Shown here: piece after piece, positions 1 to 7,233 of the stretch
Position numbering within the stretch: position 1 is the stretch's first letter
Layout of the letters: the number at the start of each line of letters is the position of its first letter
Virus record (IMG/VR): IMGVR_UViG_2531839030_000007
Reading direction: 5' to 3' (one strand)
From: a virus
Lineage: Duplodnaviria; Heunggongvirae; Uroviricota; Caudoviricetes
Length of the DNA stretch: 7,233 bases
Translations under genes and position numbers: made by a program
Notes under the pieces: model-generated
What the model saw: only the letters and a program-made list of their open reading frames with translations
Told to the model about the DNA's origin: nothing
Databases searched by the model: none

Positions 1-73
1 AACGTGTATTTTTAGTCATCCTGTTTACCTCTTTCTCAGGGAGTTTAGTCTCCAGGATTCCCGGGGCGGTTCA
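1..73 (-). mobile_element. Left end of an IS3-family insertion sequence (IS629/IS1203-like): terminal inverted repeat plus first codons of orfA; the element continues beyond the window start
   Basis: Read on the minus strand from position 73 the sequence is TGAACCGCCCCGGGAATCCTGGAGACTAAAC..., a TG-initiated terminal repeat I recognise as IS629-group. It is followed by an AGAGG Shine-Dalgarno and ATG at 19..17 opening ATG ACT AAA AAT ACA CGT (MTKNTR...), which matches the orfA N-terminus as I recall it. Tfa homology on the plus strand begins abruptly at about 74. Confidence 0.65.
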
Positions 74-189
74 ATCTGCTGGCCGGAACTAATGAATTTA
101 TTGGTGAAGGTGACGCATACATTCCGCCTCATACAGGTCTGCCAGCAAACAGTACCGATATTGCACCGCCAGATATTCCGGCTGGCTTC

Positions 190-606
190 GTGGCTGTTTT
201 CAACAGTAATGAGGCATCGTGGCATCTCGTTGAAGATCATCGGGGTAAAACGGTTTATGACGTGGCTTCCGGCGACGCGTTATTTATTTCTGAACTCGGT
301 CCGTTACCGGAAAATGTTACCTGGTTGTCGCCGGATGGAGAGTGTCAGAAGTGGAACGGCACATCCTGGGCGAAAGATGCAGAAGCAGAAAAACTGTTTC
401 GGGTACGGGAGGCAGAAGAAACAAAAAACAGCCTGATGCAGGTAGCCAGTGAGCATATTGCGCCACTTCAGGATGCCGTAGATTTGGATATTGCGACGGA
501 GGAAGAGGCATCGTTACTGGCTGCATGGAAGACATATCGGGTATTGTTGAATCGTGTTGATACAACAGTAGCAGCGGATGTTGAGTGGCCAGTCGCCCCA
601 CAATAA
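190..606 (+). CDS. tfa: Tail fibre assembly protein (Tfa family), 5'-truncated remnant; probably a pseudogene
   Basis: The translation (…[81 protein letters not shown]…VLLNRVD…) is near-identical to enterobacterial lambdoid/P2-type Tfa proteins as I recall them. The frame is open from 49 but has no ATG/GTG/TTG before the GTG at 190. The canonical Tfa N-terminus (about 16 residues, MAFRMSEQPRTIKIY in E. coli homologues) is not encoded; IS sequence takes its place. Stop is TAA at 604..606. Confidence 0.85.
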
Positions 607-613
607 AAAGAAA

Positions 614-641
614 AAGCCATCGACAGAAATATCGATGGCTT
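614..641. terminator. Bidirectional rho-independent terminator between the convergent tfa and acetyltransferase genes
   Basis: Perfect 10-bp inverted repeat AAGCCATCGA (614..623) / TCGATGGCTT (632..641) with an 8-nt loop. On the minus strand it is followed by TTTTTCTTTTTA, on the plus strand by TTATGTACTCTATTT. It lies 8 nt after the tfa stop and 9 nt after the minus-strand gene stop (650..652). Confidence 0.6.
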
Positions 642-649
642 TATGTACT

Positions 650-1222
650 CTATTTATACAATACAACACCACTCTTTTTAGTTATATATGTGCAGTTTGA
701 TGGTATATCTTTATTTATAAAAGACATTGCACCTATTTTTACATTATCCCCAATTTTACGTGATAATCCAATGATGCAACAATTAGCTCCGATATCAACG
801 TTACTACCAATTTTTACTCTTGAACTAGGCATATCACCATCTATCTGTCCAATGGTAGTATTCTGTCGTAATACCAGATTTTCACCCGCATCAACAGCAA
901 AATGAACAACAATTCCAGCATGATGGGGAATTGTCAACCCTTTTCCAATATTTGCGCCCAATCCTATTTCACAACCAAACTTGTTAATTATTTTACTGTT
1001 TAACTTTTTGGCTGCTTTCTTATGTAATTTATTACCATTAATATACATTTCGTTAGCCAACCGCCACCAGAAAAGGAAATTCCGGTTACGCTGCTTTTTC
1101 TCTCTTAAAAGCCTCCAGATATCCATACGTTTCCGCCGAATTACTTCATGTTTCCAGAAGTTTTTTAAATTAGTAGAGTTTCCAAATAAAACAAAGTGAA
1201 TTGCCATTAAGTAAGATAGCAC
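650..1222 (-). CDS. Hexapeptide-repeat (left-handed beta-helix) acetyltransferase, WcaB/CysE-like; AT-rich cargo gene
   Basis: The ORF is open 650..1255. Its translation carries the serine/sugar O-acetyltransferase signature FGCEIGLGANIGKGLTIPHHAGIVVH…GENLVLRQNTTIG…VKIGSNVDIGANCCIIG…IGDNVKIGAMSFINKDIP, preceded by an FWWRLA helical segment. Start is uncertain: GTG at 1222..1220 has AAGGAG 6 nt upstream (preferred); alternatives are GTG at 1255 and ATG at 1207. Hand counts of 60-nt blocks give about 25-32% G+C here against about 53% in a tail-gene block. Confidence 0.8.
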   Translation of the reverse strand: MLSYLMAIHFVLFGNSTNLKNFWKHEVIRRKRMDIWRLLREKKQRNRNFLFWWRLANEMYINGNKLHKKAAKKLNSKIINKFGCEIGLGANIGKGLTIPHHAGIVVHFAVDAGENLVLRQNTTIGQIDGDMPSSRVKIGSNVDIGANCCIIGLSRKIGDNVKIGAMSFINKDIPSNCTYITKKSGVVLYK

Positions 1223-1273
1223 GATAATCTCCTTAATTATTATTTCAGACCACACATGTTATAAGGTTAAGAG

Positions 1274-1302
1274 ATTATAAAATCCTGTTATTTGTTATTC
1301 AA
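1274..1302 (-). promoter_or_regulatory. Sigma70-type promoter for the acetyltransferase gene
   Basis: On the minus strand: -35 TTGAAT (1302..1297), a 17-bp spacer, and a perfect -10 TATAAT (1279..1274). There is an A/T-rich tract upstream of the -35. The predicted transcription start near 1267 lies upstream of the AAGGAG Shine-Dalgarno at 1234..1229. Confidence 0.45.
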
Positions 1303-1378
1303 AAACAATTTTCTGAGAAGGACATACAACAGCAAGTCGCCAGTCACCTTCATCAGGAAATTGGCGACATACGTTAAA

Positions 1379-1873
1379 TCAGAGCAGCCCCTTAACTGAG
1401 CTGGCCGCGCTATTAAGGGATGATGTCACCTTATCTTTGAAGCCGGACAGCATATCGCTGAACGATGAGGATTGCAGGCGCTCCCGCAAATCCTCATCAC
1501 AGCGTTCAAGAGTCAGTGAAAATTCTATCTTTTTCGCCTTACCGTAGCGATCAAACTCGGAGCGGGTCGTATTCGTTCCGGTCAGGACATACATGCCGTA
1601 AATCTGCCCGACGCCATCAATCAAAGGCCAAGGACGTCCTGTATATGCCTGCGTGGTCAACAACGACAGCGACACTTCGCCACCAGTAATCTCAGGATAA
1701 AGAACACCAGAAAGAACGATGCGATCATCACCTGCACCGATATACTGCCAGCTTGCTGAACGGTTAACGCGTTCATTTTTCACATGTCGCCAGCTTTTGT
1801 TTTGCTGTAACTGCTGATGCGGCAACGTGCGCAGCTCAAAAACAAACATGCCGTAGATCATCATCATGGCCAT
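1379..1873 (-). CDS. U: P2 gpU-like tail protein
   Basis: The translation shares blocks with P2 gpU as recalled (LSGVLYPEITGG, WPLIDGVGQIYGMYV, KIEFSLTLERCDE). GAGGAG lies just upstream of the ATG cluster at 1873..1861, and the upstream tape-measure fragment ends at 1880..1882. Stop is TGA at 1379..1381. Confidence 0.88.
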   Translation of the reverse strand: MAMMMIYGMFVFELRTLPHQQLQQNKSWRHVKNERVNRSASWQYIGAGDDRIVLSGVLYPEITGGEVSLSLLTTQAYTGRPWPLIDGVGQIYGMYVLTGTNTTRSEFDRYGKAKKIEFSLTLERCDEDLRERLQSSSFSDMLSGFKDKVTSSLNSAASSVKGLL

Positions 1874-1879
1874 GACTCC

Positions 1880-2716
1880 TCAATCTTTATCGTAAAAACT
1901 GCCACGCCTGGCACGGGCGCGCCGTTCCATTTCTGCCCTGACCATTTCGCCGACCAGTTTCGCCAGTTCGCGGGGATTCTGCGTAACAACGTTATGCAGA
2001 TGAACATGAATTTCACCGCCAAATCCGGAGGCAACAGGCTCCCGGTTACGGGAAGTTGCAGGAACTGATGCCACTGGCGATCGTATGGCCTCCACCACCG
2101 GGCGGGAGCTGGCCGCAACAACAGGGACCAGCGCCGGAGGCAGCGGAGCCGGGACCACGGGTGTGATATTAATTGCGGGGGCAGGCTTACTGACCTGCGC
2201 AATCTTCCGCTCCTGCCACTCCCCACGAACAGCAAGTGCGCGGGGCAGGTTCTTAAAGACAATATCGCCGGGGCCAATGCGTTTTTTTGTCTCATCAACC
2301 AGCTTACCTGTGTTATCAGCAATTTTGCTGAGTCTGCGTAGCGTGCCGGTATTGCTGTCTGTGAGAGGTTTGTTGTCTTTGGGTTTATCATCTCCGGTGC
2401 CATTGCTATTTCCCGCAGACTTCGGCGGATTGATTTTCGCAATGTCTCCCTGAAACAGAGCAACCTTGTCCTGAAGAATGGCCGCACGTTGTGCGTCTTC
2501 GATTTTCTTGCGCGCCCTTTCCGCTTCATCCGGAAGCACACCGAGTTTTTCAAGTATCCACGCCAGCGTATCCAGCAACATTTTTGCAGGCGTCAGAACA
2601 AGCTGTAACGCACCACCAAGAACGTTACCGAATACCTCGCCAGCACTGGTACATTTATCCAGCGTTTCCTTGCTGGACTCCATCGGTGACAGCAGCGATT
2701 TAAACCAGTTAAACAC
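1880..2716 (-). CDS. T: Tail tape measure protein, C-terminal portion, out of frame with the N-terminal portion (frameshifted gene or pseudogene)
   Basis: A 278-codon ORF that overlaps the 3' end of the 708-codon tape-measure ORF in a different frame. It sits directly between the tape measure and gpU, as the tape-measure C-terminus does in P2. Its frame opens just after a TGA within the overlap. Confidence 0.75.
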   Translation of the reverse strand: MFNWFKSLLSPMESSKETLDKCTSAGEVFGNVLGGALQLVLTPAKMLLDTLAWILEKLGVLPDEAERARKKIEDAQRAAILQDKVALFQGDIAKINPPKSAGNSNGTGDDKPKDNKPLTDSNTGTLRRLSKIADNTGKLVDETKKRIGPGDIVFKNLPRALAVRGEWQERKIAQVSKPAPAINITPVVPAPLPPALVPVVAASSRPVVEAIRSPVASVPATSRNREPVASGFGGEIHVHLHNVVTQNPRELAKLVGEMVRAEMERRARARRGSFYDKD

Positions 2717-4719
2717 CTGGCTGAACCGCTTCCGATTACGTCAAAAACAGGGCCAAACCGTTCAAAGGTGTCGCGCAACGGGGTCAGCCTTTCCATAATC
2801 CCGCTGAACACCCCGGCAAAGAAAGCCCTGATAGGATCCCAGTATTTCCAGATAAGAACGGCAGCTCCGGCAAGCGCAGCCACGATAAGACCAACCGGAC
2901 TGAACAACGCCCCGATAACGCCTCCCAGTAAAGAAACGGAACCCGTCACCATTCCCCATAGCGCAGGTAACACCCTGACGACATTCATTGACCGGGTAAG
3001 AATGTCAAAACCAAGACGCAGGGTGGCCAGCTTCCCGTAAAGCACCCCAATAACCAGCGACAACGAGCCAATCGTTGCAGTCATTGCCAGCAACGCACCG
3101 CCTGCTATCAGTAGCTGGCGCGTCAGTACCGGATGGGCCTGCGCCAGCGAGGTGATTTTTTCAAGCACCCGCGTGAGCCACTGCGTGACAGAACGCAGCG
3201 GACCGTCAACCAGATCACTGATGCGAATACGAAGACCTTCCCATGCGCTGTCGAGATTTTTCAGGTCCCCATCAAGATTATCAGCCATTACTTTTGCGAC
3301 GCGATCGGCCTCTCCCCTTGCCCCCTGCAATTCTCTGGTCAGTTTTTGCAGCTCTCCTGAACCAGCCGCCGCAACAAGCGTCTGCAAACCAACGAACGCC
3401 TCTTCTCCGGCGATGTCCTTGAAGAAGGAGACCTGGTCCACCTGTCCGTATTTTTGTGTCGCCTTATAGAGATCAAGCAGCACATCCTCCATCGGGCGCA
3501 TTTTGCCTCTGGCGTCAGCAACTGACACCCCCAGCTCTTTCAGTGCATCAGCCGCAGCTTTTGGCGGTGATGCAAGGCGGGACAGACTTGCGCGCATGGC
3601 CGTGCCAGCATCGCTTCCGCGAAGACCATTATTGGCAAGCATCCCGGCCATGGCCGCCGCTTCTTCAAGACTGATACCAAGTTTTGCGGCAACCGGACCG
3701 GTATACTTCATGGTTTCGCCCAGCGCGCGTAAATCAGTATTGGTCCGGGTAAATGCTGCTGTCAGCGTATCGCCCACCCGGTCCATTTGATCGGCTGTCA
3801 GGTTGAACTGTGTGAGGATATTGGAGCCTATATCAGCCGTCTCGCCGAGTTCGACGCCACCTGCCAGCGCCATATTAAGAACACCGGGCAATGCGGCCTG
3901 AATGGCCTGCGGAGTAAAACCAGCCATTGCCAGAAAGCTCTGCCCACTGGCGGCATCACTCGCAGTAAACTGTGTTTCAGCAAGTTTTAACGCCTGCTCA
4001 CGCAGCGCCTTAAACTGCGGGCTGTTTTTGTCGATTCGCGTCAGTGCCTGAACGCGGGACATCTCTTTGCCGAACCCGATCGCAGGCTGCAAAAAACGCC
4101 CGGCAGCATAGCCGCCCGCCGCTGCCGCACCAATTGCCAGCGCACCACCTGTTTTCAGTTTTCCCGCGGTTTCCTGCGCGTGCGAATACCGCTCACGCGC
4201 CTGCGTTACACGCGCAAGCGCCTGCCGTTCGCGTTCAAGCTGGTTGTTGTATTGTTCGGTGCGTCTGATGGCCTGCTGAATGGTGTTATCGCTGCCTGTC
4301 AGGGAAATGCCGTGGCGTTTCAGCTCTCCGCCAAGTTCCCTCATTTTCTGAATTTCCCGTGTGCGCGATTCATTCAGGCGTTCAAGCCGGGTGCTTAACT
4401 GCTGCATCAGCTTTTGTTGTTTTTCGCTGAGCACTGTACCCGTGCGTTGTAACTGATTAAGGGCGTTAAGCTGGCGTCGTGCTTTCACGATGCCAGCATC
4501 CGCTTTACTGACAGCGTCGCGGGCGCGCTCAAATGATCGCGCCTGACGCTCGAGATTTTTGATCGCCCCCTGCGTTCGCTGGATGGAGTCACCAAACTGC
4601 CCCATCAGGCGGCGTGCGTTTTCGGCAGGTCGGGTCAGCCTGTCAACGGCGCTGAAAGCGACCCGGATATCAAGAGTCTTCATTGTCTGCATTCCCGCTG
4701 CGAAGTGCCGCCCGCTCAC
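2593..4719 (-). CDS. T: Tail tape measure protein, N-terminal portion (P2 gpT-like)
   Basis: A 708-codon ORF with coiled-coil-like Ala/Gln/Arg/Leu-rich segments and C-terminal hydrophobic Gly/Ala-rich stretches typical of tape measures, located between E/E' and gpU. The last roughly 45 residues (…GSGSARCLTGLNRCCHRWSP…) look out of frame. The true start is probably ATG at 4692 or 4683, overlapping the E' stop at 4670..4672, rather than GTG at 4719. Confidence 0.88.
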   Translation of the reverse strand: MSGRHFAAGMQTMKTLDIRVAFSAVDRLTRPAENARRLMGQFGDSIQRTQGAIKNLERQARSFERARDAVSKADAGIVKARRQLNALNQLQRTGTVLSEKQQKLMQQLSTRLERLNESRTREIQKMRELGGELKRHGISLTGSDNTIQQAIRRTEQYNNQLERERQALARVTQARERYSHAQETAGKLKTGGALAIGAAAAGGYAAGRFLQPAIGFGKEMSRVQALTRIDKNSPQFKALREQALKLAETQFTASDAASGQSFLAMAGFTPQAIQAALPGVLNMALAGGVELGETADIGSNILTQFNLTADQMDRVGDTLTAAFTRTNTDLRALGETMKYTGPVAAKLGISLEEAAAMAGMLANNGLRGSDAGTAMRASLSRLASPPKAAADALKELGVSVADARGKMRPMEDVLLDLYKATQKYGQVDQVSFFKDIAGEEAFVGLQTLVAAAGSGELQKLTRELQGARGEADRVAKVMADNLDGDLKNLDSAWEGLRIRISDLVDGPLRSVTQWLTRVLEKITSLAQAHPVLTRQLLIAGGALLAMTATIGSLSLVIGVLYGKLATLRLGFDILTRSMNVVRVLPALWGMVTGSVSLLGGVIGALFSPVGLIVAALAGAAVLIWKYWDPIRAFFAGVFSGIMERLTPLRDTFERFGPVFDVIGSGSARCLTGLNRCCHRWSPARKRWINVPVLARYSVTFLVVRYSLF

Positions 4720-6950: not shown

Positions 6951-7161
6951 AGCTTCAGCCCCTTGTATCCGTTAAATGATTCGGCAACAATCATCACCCA
7001 CCACGCGCGTAATCTCACCCCTGCGCCGTTCTCCCGCCACGGCGACAACAAAAAGCAGTAACCCCCTCCGCACGCACATGCGACCATGCCGCACAGGGAG
7101 GGAACAGATGACCGACACCACCATGCAATTGCTCAGTCAGGGCACAGACCACGTGAAAGTT

Positions 7162-7233
7162 TGTTCGCCTTAACCATCCTGATATTTGCTCTGGAGACCA
7201 TTTCATCTCCAGCTTTTCCAGAACAAGCTTTCG
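7162..7233 (-). mobile_element. Internal fragment of an IS30-family transposase gene, truncated at about 7161; continues beyond the window end
   Basis: The minus-strand frame running through 7233..7162 encodes RKLVLEKLEMKWSPEQISGWLRRT, which matches the IS30 transposase segment (…LRKLVLEKLEMKWSPEQISGWLRRTKPRQK…) as I recall it, including the WSPEQISG hallmark. Below 7162 the frame continues as NFHVVCALTEQ…, which is unrelated, and no other frame continues the IS30 sequence. Confidence 0.6.

Follow-up and report, generated by a model that had tools for sequence, protein, structure and literature searches.

A low-G+C block between two tail genes

The window, that is, the whole stretch of 7,233 nt that was analysed, is CP-933T, the remnant in E. 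coli O157:H7 of a P88-like prophage of the P2 family. A block of low G+C content lies between a tail fibre assembly gene and a tail gene. The features of the window that are used below are as follows.

76–606, plus strand: tfa, tail fibre assembly gene (Pfam Caudo_TAP, 2.6e-40), convergent with the acetyltransferase gene
607–1378, no strand: low-G+C block, edged by the stop codons of tfa (606) and gpU (1379)
613–642, minus strand: intrinsic terminator-like hairpin, a 13-bp stem followed by a T-run (consensus match)
650–1222, minus strand: acetyltransferase gene, 190 aa, GTG start (RefSeq WP_000954203.1, 'serine O-acetyltransferase'; PHROG 2154)
1229–1234, minus strand: AAGGAG as a Shine-Dalgarno sequence, 6 nt upstream of the GTG at 1222 (read from the sequence)
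1274–1302, minus strand: sigma-70 promoter-like site, TTGAAT, 17-nt spacer, TATAAT (consensus match)
1343–1362, no strand: 20-nt stretch, complementary at 17/20 positions to the tfa codons 'NEFIGEGD' (95–114)
1379–1873, minus strand: gpU tail gene (Pfam Phage_P2_GpU, 1.5e-38), the upstream boundary of the slot
7108–7160, strand not given: 5' stub of gpD, cut by IS30

The G+C content of the block is 33.8%, against 53.5% in the rest of the window. The contrast with the tail genes that the preliminary description had pointed out is thus sharp, although its hand-counted value of 25–32% was slightly low. Every 200-nt window inside the block has 30.5–36.5% G+C, and none wholly outside it falls below 45.5%; blocks of 100 nt within 607–1378 have between 26 and 45%, and both flanking genes, tfa and gpU, have 49.9%. 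Similarity to P88-like phages without the acetyltransferase gene ends at window 1372–1374.

The sole ORF of the block is on the minus strand at 650–1255 and encodes 201 aa when counted from the first GTG. Translation likely starts at the GTG at 1222, giving 190 aa, because AAGGAG is located 6 nt upstream, P1-like homologues have ATG at the same codon and the RefSeq start is identical. The promoter-like site at 1302–1274 matches the consensus at 10/12 positions, including a perfect TATAAT, although such sites are not more frequent in this region than expected from shuffled sequences. The terminator-like hairpin lies 8 nt past the acetyltransferase stop, between the two convergent genes. With a promoter-like site, a ribosome-binding site, one ORF, a terminator-like hairpin and foreign base composition, the block has the makeup of an autonomous moron as judged from its sequence, which agrees with the architecture proposed earlier. 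The gene is under purifying selection (dN/dS 0.03–0.19). A literature search by the presumed old locus numbers Z2983–Z2988 found no transcript data for it.

No tandem repeat was found in 560–1420 (scan with a minimum score of 30), and so there is no phase-variation repeat of the NeuO kind. An Rfam scan found no leader RNA in 1223–1378, the only strong match being IS009, inside tfa. The 156-nt region upstream of the gene has no BLAST match among phages, and in an alignment with the P1-like homologue the upstream regions are unrelated beyond the start codon. The complementary match between 1343–1362 and 95–114 has a chance expectation of about 0.03 by rough arithmetic. The stretch may have been left by a recombination joint or by a second tfa in inverted orientation, and the inverted repeat is possibly a recombination scar. 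As an invertase crossover site it was rejected, being by eye unlike gix, hix and cix.

The slot between tfa and gpU holds variable cargo

In the P88-like lineage, the operon from the sheath gene to U is inverted relative to P2, and gpU is the last gene of this inverted sheath-tube-E-T-U operon. gpD and ogr of this lineage lie beyond the sheath gene, away from this slot, and are transcribed divergently; the window contains the gpD stub at 7108–7160. The order tfa, acetyltransferase gene, gpU is kept in apparently complete relatives. The earlier placement of the gene where P2 carries gpD and ogr therefore fails; by synteny with these relatives, neither D nor ogr was replaced.

The tfa–gpU slot is occupied by the acetyltransferase gene or else by a DNA invertase together with an alternative fibre tip. 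P88, 500465-2 and UTI89 have the DNA invertase and the alternative fibre segment. Among 1343 E. coli genomes carrying the same gpU, the acetyltransferase gene adjoins gpU in 495, and genomes without it break at window 1372–1374 and carry the invertase module, which indicates one fixed joint. The acetyltransferase gene is cargo, not core, as the preliminary description had supposed and as the proposed survey of the neighbours of gpU in related prophages bears out.

The P2 counterpart of this slot is fun(Z). fun(Z) is a non-essential lysogenic-conversion gene that is variable among relatives; it lies directly downstream of and convergent with G (tfa), on the opposite strand, past the late-operon terminator, between G/tfa and FI. 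Fun(Z) has about 528 aa and is annotated as blocking T5, whereas the acetyltransferase has 190 aa, and the slot of P88-like phages is bounded by gpU and not by FI because the F operon is inverted. The invertible fibre segments with Gin, Cin or Pin (Mu, P1, e14, P88) are also comparable, since they occupy the same post-tfa slot in sister phages and are accessories of host-range modules. However, invertases switch fibre specificity, whereas the acetyltransferase gene comes without a recombinase, and no crossover site could be recognised.

The gene is present in 530 of 5426 complete E. coli genomes (about 1 in 10). Carriers include the Shiga-toxin-producing O157:H7, O26, O103, O111 and O104:H4 lineages and P1-like phage-plasmids, and nearly the same gene is found in O157, O26, O103, O111 and O104 strains, with 97.0–97.7% nucleotide identity over the block in those alignment rows that were checked. 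At 73 of 80 homologous loci, the homologue has a lower G+C content than its flanks. The papers found to mention CP-933T do not discuss the gene, and its role is called unknown in PMC9603915 and PMC6456863.

The O157 remnant is decayed. The first approximately 15 codons of tfa were lost to an IS3-family remnant (window 1–72), and homology begins at window 73; a full-length tfa, as in one related locus (L089), has 579 bp. The tape measure gene is frameshifted, gpD is truncated like tfa, and the head and fibre genes are gone, while the acetyltransferase gene is intact. This is consistent with selection on the host, with the caveat that O157 genomes are clonal.

A host-range cassette with the fibre tip and tfa

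The P1-like phage-plasmid JL22 shares a cassette of 2.25 kb at 93% identity, which begins at the C-terminus of the fibre and ends 9 nt short of the start codon of the acetyltransferase gene. In JL22, the acetyltransferase gene is located inside the invertible C segment, between two convergent tfa genes. Furthermore, a convergent tfa lies within about 50 bp in 66 of the 74 IMG/VR loci that have room downstream, and this linkage holds on four backbones or more and for homologues with as little as 45% protein identity. In P2-like prophages of classical gene order (Buttiauxella L022, Pectobacterium L044, IMG/VR L151-154 and L166), the homologue is found between the fibre genes and the sheath gene; its fibre-side neighbour is tfa, except in the Pectobacterium prophage, in which it is the fibre gene itself. 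Thus, fibre tip, tfa and acetyltransferase are exchanged as one host-range cassette among P2-like prophages, P1-like phage-plasmids and other myovirus-type prophages. The linkage to tfa could also arise solely because insertion is favoured where the late operon ends.

The protein belongs to the CysE/WcaB superfamily

The Pfam Hexapep model gave 24.1 bits on the single sequence, below its cut-off of 27. A profile built from 106 homologues matched solved serine acetyltransferases (SATs) in the PDB at E = 3e-25 and beta-helix acetyltransferases at E = 3e-25 to 1e-7. The AlphaFold (AF2) monomer model (pLDDT 91) has a five-helix N-domain followed, from about residue 85, by a short-strand region that aligns with the beta-helix domain of SATs, and the top fold matches of this model in the PDB are all SATs. 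The profile, the model and the fold matches together make the assignment as a left-handed beta-helix acetyltransferase of the CysE/WcaB superfamily secure at the level of sequence and predicted structure, despite the weak Hexapep score. One ORF and this family match uphold the earlier description of the block as a single-gene cassette for a CysE/WcaB-like hexapeptide acetyltransferase, and the profile search and, for the monomer, the structure prediction that it had proposed came out in its favour. The protein is predicted to be soluble and acetyl-CoA-dependent, and it presumably forms a trimer like its relatives. It also matches the phage family PHROG 2154 (E = 2.9e-87, residues 13–190 on profile positions 3–181 of 185).

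Comparison with E. coli CysE revealed both kept and replaced residues. The catalytic acid-His pair is kept (D143 corresponds to E85 and H158 to H100), and His100 is nearly invariant among the 106 homologues. We take Asp92, Asp157, Arg192 and His193 (E. coli numbering) to be the serine-binding residues of CysE, following the literature on 1T3D. Three of them are not kept (D157 corresponds to P99, R192 to S134 and H193 to R135), and Asp92 has no aligned counterpart. The loop holding the aligned P99, S134 and R135 positions varies in length and sequence across the family. The C-terminal tail of CysE binds CysK and mediates cysteine feedback. The prophage protein ends at about CysE residue 247 of 273, approximately 26 residues short, and this tail is absent. 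Its N-terminal domain has 82 aa versus about 140 in CysE, a difference of about 60 residues.

Scores against named families lead to the same picture. EpsC (NF041874) is the best-scoring NCBIfam family, with 76.2 bits versus a cut-off of 150, so the protein is not a member, and it is followed by CysE (TIGR01172, 62.4 bits versus 210.65; NF008349, 36.6 bits versus 397) and WcaB (TIGR04016 and NF007564, 54–56 bits versus 195–196). EpsC and WcaB resemble the protein in size, being short SAT-like enzymes with a function in polysaccharide synthesis, but the scores are well under the cut-offs (150 and 196), and the gene is in a prophage, outside the wca cluster and any EPS or colanic acid cluster. 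The helical N-domain, the beta-helix, the Asp/Glu-His pair and the best solved-structure match are shared with CysE. Because the serine-binding residues Asp157, Arg192 and His193 and the CysK-binding tail are missing, the database name 'serine O-acetyltransferase' is probably wrong. A true SAT was rejected on residues and family cut-offs, and the replaced residues together with the absent tail argue against an enzyme of the cysteine pathway.

Homologues in LPS and other contexts

Some distant homologues are found next to LPS genes. Those of Orbaceae (L016) and Gilliamella (L058), with 43–48% identity, form same-strand pairs with genes of the GT9 heptosyltransferase family. In two Pseudomonas loci (L065, L076), a GT2-acetyltransferase pair is located in an LPS-core cluster among WaaP-family kinases and a carbamoyltransferase, and the cluster of L076 contains MsbA and Mig-14 as well. 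Another homologue adjoins an MsbA-related gene (L081), two are in a GT2 pair beside lpxP (L037, L047) and one is near inaA (L020). This LPS association amounts to about 8 of 80 loci, all of them with distant homologues. Most chromosomal homologues (40–50% identity) are solitary and in unrelated contexts, e.g., in Rahnella, with a POT transporter on one side and a GGDEF protein on the other. Homologues in ESSI2 phages adjoin the integrase and in one case lie beside an Abi-family gene, and that of phiNP follows a hicAB pair. In a rough NJ tree without support values, tfa-linked and LPS-linked members are interleaved.

Possible roles of the acetyltransferase

As a whole, the explanation that we prefer has about an even chance of being correct: the enzyme may O-acetylate an envelope glycan, perhaps the LPS core, and thereby mask a receptor. 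The gene would be transcribed in lysogens from its own promoter, and the enzyme would act on a sugar of the envelope glycan at the cytoplasmic face of the membrane, with the LPS core as the leading candidate acceptor. The altered receptor surface would then restrict superinfection, or re-adsorption, by phages whose fibres bind LPS. We infer a glycan or LPS acceptor from context, because homologues neighbour LPS genes, the protein is similar to EpsC, WcaB and CysE, and the tree is interleaved. Acetylation of a surface polysaccharide, as suggested earlier, is therefore still the best guess, but an O-antigen-specific acceptor is disfavoured because nearly the same gene is found in O157, O26, O103, O111 and O104. 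We know of no precedent for an O-acetylated E. coli LPS core.

Known phage-borne enzymes provide partial models. NeuO of the CUS-3 prophage is a soluble, acetyl-CoA-dependent, left-handed beta-helix polysialic acid O-acetyltransferase that modifies the capsule of the lysogen (PMC3046976). As a prophage-borne beta-helix O-acetyltransferase, it sets the best precedent for how the enzyme is proposed to act. However, NeuO belongs to another beta-helix subfamily and is missing among the listed PDB sequence matches, it has a phase-variable 5' heptanucleotide VNTR that the prophage gene is without, and its acceptor is limited to K1 strains, whereas the prophage gene spans many serotypes. Oac of Sf6, OafA and GtrC (acyltransferase-3) are the classic cases of phage-borne O-acetylation of the LPS of a lysogen, but they are polytopic membrane proteins acting on the periplasmic side, whereas the prophage protein, with 190 aa, is predicted to be soluble and has no Pfam match to Acyl_transf_3.

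Other targets of the enzyme were weighed against an envelope glycan. It is unlikely that the enzyme has a small-molecule substrate (a sugar, metabolite or xenobiotic, as for the maltose and galactoside acetyltransferases) and provides a metabolic or detoxification benefit apart from phage receptors. There is weaker similarity to LacA and Maa-type enzymes, and solitary chromosomal homologues without glycan genes are sometimes beside POT or MFS transporters, but the fold and N-domain resemble those of SATs and WcaB, not those of Maa and LacA, and the near-universal tail-fibre linkage in viral contigs would be left unexplained. A genuine serine O-acetyltransferase, which would raise the supply of O-acetylserine and cysteine or perturb CysB or CysK signalling, is very unlikely: the RefSeq name, the conserved acid-His pair and the closest solved structures, all CysE, are outweighed by the low CysE scores, the P, S and R in a variable loop, the short N-domain and the early end of the protein. 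Most improbable of all is a target in the virion: the substrate would be the tail fibre, its chaperone or a glycan bound to the fibre, and the co-transferred fibre tip would need the enzyme to function. Inheritance in one cassette with the fibre tip and tfa would fit such a target, but the gene and the late operon are convergent, the gene having a promoter-like site and a terminator-like hairpin of its own, the cassette homology ends at the start codon, so that upstream regulation differs between hosts, homologues occur outside phages, and the gene is intact in the O157 remnant despite the loss of the fibre genes.

The preliminary description had also offered an unrecognised defence or toxin-like activity, for which we found no positive support. 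Such an effector would acetylate a component of an invading phage or a host target, and we regard it as quite improbable. The slot is equivalent to that of fun(Z), with its annotated block of T5, the neighbourhoods in ESSI2 and phiNP point in the same direction, and defence genes are abundant in the variable hotspots of the P2 family (PMC9122126). On the other hand, a scan of the protein against PADLOC-DB 2.0 matched 0 families at E <= 1, two P2/P4 hotspot studies do not mention acetyltransferases, and the gene is without a partner gene. Moreover, many homologues are stable solitary chromosomal genes or members of LPS clusters, which is hard to square with a toxin. The known acetyltransferase toxins are GNAT and not beta-helix enzymes.

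Returning to glycan acetylation, a broader generalisation can be proposed, although we consider it rather doubtful: host-range cassettes of LPS-binding myoviruses (P2-like, P1-like and relatives) might carry, beside the fibre tip and its chaperone, a matched LPS-core O-acetyltransferase that masks the receptor of the co-transferred fibre. Adsorption specificity and superinfection exclusion would then be swapped as one 'key plus lock-changer', and the enzyme would pass repeatedly between LPS loci on chromosomes and fibre loci of phages.

Significance

A widespread E. coli gene, present in the 530 complete genomes counted above, is probably mis-named as an enzyme of the cysteine pathway. Its tight linkage to a receptor-binding cassette provides a concrete and cheaply testable hypothesis. 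If the LPS core or another envelope glycan is acetylated, the gene would be a widespread, unrecognised lysogenic-conversion factor affecting phage susceptibility. If this is true, it would be relevant to phage therapy and phage typing of STEC, and possibly to interactions with serum or antimicrobial peptides.

Source prophage and its decay

The window is identical (100%) to chromosomes of E. coli O157:H7, e.g., EDL933. It lies in a prophage remnant, with yecA on one side and the leuZ-cysT-glyW tRNA genes on the other, that is named CP-933T or O-island 76 in the literature. Its tail genes show 92-97% identity to those of phages 500465-2, P88 and other Peduoviridae (Gemsvirus/Xuanwuvirus type).

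Layout of the window (RefSeq annotation with ORF and Pfam checks; signals are consensus matches only)
1-72: IS3-family remnant (IS1203/IS629-like end), abutting tfa
76-606, plus: tfa (tail fibre assembly gene), 5'-truncated (RefSeq, ORF, Pfam)
613-642: terminator-like 13-bp hairpin and T-run, downstream of the acetyltransferase gene
650-1222, minus: acetyltransferase gene (RefSeq, ORF, Pfam)
1302-1274: promoter-like site TTGAAT-17-TATAAT, upstream of the acetyltransferase gene
1379-1873, minus: gpU (RefSeq, ORF, Pfam)
1880-4719, minus: tape-measure pseudogene, frameshifted (RefSeq)
After the tape measure, all minus: gpE', gpE, tube, sheath (RefSeq, ORF, Pfam)
7108-7160, plus: gpD, first 53 nt only, cut by IS30 (RefSeq, ORF, Pfam)

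Two overlapping ORFs (2593-4719 and 1880-2716) now make up the tape-measure gene, a pseudogene in RefSeq; tfa and gpD are truncated, and head, lysis and baseplate genes are missing. Therefore, the prophage is defective. The IS3-family end removed about 15 codons of tfa, which RefSeq rescues with a non-canonical start, and the deletion in O157:H7 took the fibre gene and everything upstream up to parM-like genes. Collinearity with EDL933 holds up to 7160, where the window skips 903 bp ahead within IS30 (7160-7233 corresponds to 23064-23137 of the EDL933 locus). Because of this jump, and because the best matches among complete genomes came in at least two pieces in all 20 listed, IS30 seems to be internally shortened or collapsed in the source assembly. 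Rfam RF02111 ('IS009') matched 371-569 on the plus strand (191 bits; gathering score 117), wholly within the tfa coding sequence. This family may simply pick up the conserved 3' portion of tfa genes in prophages and not a distinct sRNA.

An intact gene in a low-G+C block

The much lower G+C content noticed in the preliminary description is real: 33.8% in 607-1378 vs 53.5% in the rest of the window, with 49.9% in each of the flanking tfa and gpU genes. All 200-nt windows within the block had 30.5-36.5% G+C, and none wholly outside it fell below 45.5%. The block is filled by one ORF. Its likely start is the GTG at 1222, because AAGGAG lies 6 nt upstream, the codon corresponds to the ATG of P1-like homologues and RefSeq uses the same start. 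Comparisons with four homologues gave dN/dS values of 0.03-0.19, which means that its protein product is functional. The conserved 'NEFIGEGD' stretch of tfa (95-114) and a site at 1343-1362 form a 20-nt inverted repeat (17/20). The second arm is in the region upstream of the acetyltransferase gene, 17 nt away from the stop codon of gpU. The repeat may be left over from a second tfa since lost, or from the recombination by which the cassette arrived.

The slot between tfa and gpU

In P2, G (tfa) is followed by a terminator, by fun(Z) on the opposite strand, and then by FI-FII-E-T-U-D-ogr. Members of the P88-like lineage have the FI-to-U block in inverted orientation, which brings gpU to face tfa; gpD, a variable gene and ogr are on the other strand, past the sheath gene. 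Prophages of E. coli A1 and of an O104:H4 strain, which are apparently complete and carry the acetyltransferase gene, have fibre H and tfa; on the opposite strand the acetyltransferase gene, gpU, T, E, tube and sheath; and then gpD, cargo and ogr. This gene order rules out the earlier placement of the cassette where P2 carries gpD/ogr, since nothing replaces either gene. Relatives without the acetyltransferase gene (P88, 500465-2 and UTI89) have, in the same slot, a DNA invertase together with a second tfa and an alternative fibre C-terminus. The acetyltransferase gene lies in the slot on the distal side of tfa, and in P2 the corresponding position is taken by fun(Z). A homologue sits precisely between the fibre genes and the sheath gene in classical-order P2-like prophages of Buttiauxella and Pectobacterium, as well as in several IMG/VR contigs.

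The gpD-ogr interval is a second variable slot in the apparently complete relatives. It holds, on the opposite strand, a DUF2971 gene in E. coli A1 (locus L089, 16748-17533) and a DUF3800 gene in the O104:H4 strain (locus L090, 16708-17877), both candidates for further cargo or defence genes.

Cargo linked to the host-range cassette

The 3' end of gpU was present in 1343 of 5426 complete E. coli genomes. It was joined to the acetyltransferase block in 495 of them (37%), a number that includes many clonal O157:H7 genomes and overstates independent occurrences; elsewhere, homology ended at window 1372-1374. The gene is cargo and not core, as the preliminary description had proposed. The block itself occurred in 530 of the 5426 genomes, including O26, O103, O111 and O104:H4 (97.0-97.7% identity in the rows checked), and at 66 plasmid sites, those listed being on 95-102 kb plasmids.

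A single uninterrupted 2.25-kb segment (93% identity) is common to the P88-like prophage of E. coli A1 and the P1-like phage-plasmid JL22. It contains the final ~1 kb of the fibre gene together with tfa and the acetyltransferase gene. The similarity ends 9 nt before the start codon of the latter is reached, and the regions upstream are unrelated. In JL22 the gene lies within the invertible C segment, flanked by the two convergent tfa genes. Among IMG/VR loci with downstream sequence, 66 of 74 had a convergent tfa ~50 bp or less from the acetyltransferase stop codon, and most of the others had fibre genes nearby. This linkage covers at least four backbones and extends down to 45% protein identity; phiNP of Citrobacter rodentium has the same arrangement. 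Databases already annotate the gene, probably under a wrong name, and it has been mentioned in passing: the JL22 authors remarked on it and described its presence as unexplained (PMC9603915), and the phiNP authors listed it only as a putative fitness factor (PMC6456863).

A minority of homologues adjoin an integrase in Quadragintavirus phages, which gives the family a cargo site of a second type. In ESSI2_ev040 and ev015, homologues of 36-44% identity lie just past the integrase at the record end (L004, 3416-5471; L005, 4983-5609), and one also adjoins an 'abortive infection family' gene.

Taken together, these data show that the gene is intact, selected, autonomous-looking and accessory and travels with a receptor-binding module. 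It is almost certainly an accessory beta-helix acetyltransferase moron in a fun(Z)-type slot.

Protein family and comparison with CysE

With the single sequence, Pfam gave hexapeptide repeats below threshold only. PHROG 2154, labelled function unknown, matched at full length (2.9e-87). The closest NCBIfam models were EpsC, CysE and WcaB, each far under its cut-off, and a profile of 106 homologues matched serine acetyltransferases (SATs) among solved structures at 3e-25. In the AlphaFold model (pLDDT 91, pTM 0.87), residues 2-82 form five N-terminal helices, and the C-terminal region after them consists of short strands. The top fold matches of the model in the PDB were all SATs (TM 0.6-0.7 on the query). 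The short-strand region aligned to the SAT beta-helix, which bears out the earlier hexapeptide-type assignment.

Roles of the CysE residues follow the structural literature on this enzyme. We mapped the protein on the E. coli CysE sequence, confirmed beforehand as identical to 1T3D. The catalytic pair is kept (Asp143 to Glu85, His158 to His100), and His100 is nearly invariant across the family. Substrate-binding residues are not kept: Asp157, Arg192 and His193 correspond to Pro99, Ser134 and Arg135, which lie within a loop of varying length across the family, and Asp92, the fourth, has no aligned counterpart. The CysK-binding C-terminal tail is missing. A true SAT is therefore rejected, as residues, tail and cut-offs all argue against it, and the database name is probably wrong. 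We conclude from these comparisons that the protein is a predicted active acetyltransferase of the CysE/WcaB branch with an acceptor other than serine.

Chromosomal homologues

A survey in which each species was represented by a single genome yielded 168 loci. In the best 80 of these, homologues had 40-70% identity to the window protein, most were solitary in unrelated chromosomal contexts, and G+C was below that of the flanks in 73. The downstream neighbour was tfa in only 5 of 72 survey loci. In Rahnella, a solitary homologue occupies one fixed site between genes for a POT-family transporter and a PAS-GAF-GGDEF protein (eight loci, seven of them confirmed as belonging to Rahnella species; L024, L029, L030, L032, L038, L040, L054). 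This implies stable vertical inheritance outside any phage.

Where neighbours in the best 80 loci suggested a function, they were LPS-related. Homologues form same-strand pairs with GT9 heptosyltransferase-family genes in Orbaceae and in Gilliamella, GT2 pairs beside lpxP in Pseudocitrobacter, and a GT2-acetyltransferase pair in a Pseudomonas LPS-core cluster amid WaaP-family kinases and a carbamoyltransferase (L065 and L076, the latter also with MsbA and Mig-14). An MsbA-related transporter adjoins the homologue in P. mosselii, and inaA is near it in Mixta. LPS-linked and tfa-linked members were interleaved in a rough neighbor-joining tree without support values.

Possible function

Only the position of the gene supports anti-phage defence or a toxin; there is no PADLOC match, the gene has no partner gene, and many homologues are stable in chromosomes. 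Modification of the virion is unlikely, given the orientation of the gene, its separate signals and its persistence in a remnant that has lost the fibre gene. Acetylation of a small molecule may apply to the solitary homologues in chromosomes, but it would not account for the linkage to fibre genes.

As a type of enzyme, the nearest precedent is NeuO, which is encoded by prophage CUS-3; it is a soluble beta-helix O-acetyltransferase, and its substrate is the K1 capsule (PMC3046976). The two belong to different subfamilies, and the phase-variable repeat of NeuO is absent from the gene studied here.

We somewhat favor a glycan as the acceptor. LPS core specifically is the leading candidate, if a tentative one, because homologues have LPS neighbours, because fibres of the P1, P2 and Mu types attach to LPS core, and because the gene spans O serotypes that are unrelated, a distribution that speaks against an O-unit acceptor. 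To our knowledge, neither the systematic linkage to a host-range cassette nor the LPS context of relatives has been described before. The acetyltransferase would be expressed in lysogens and would O-acetylate an envelope glycan on the cytoplasmic side, so that the receptor might be masked against superinfection or re-adsorption.
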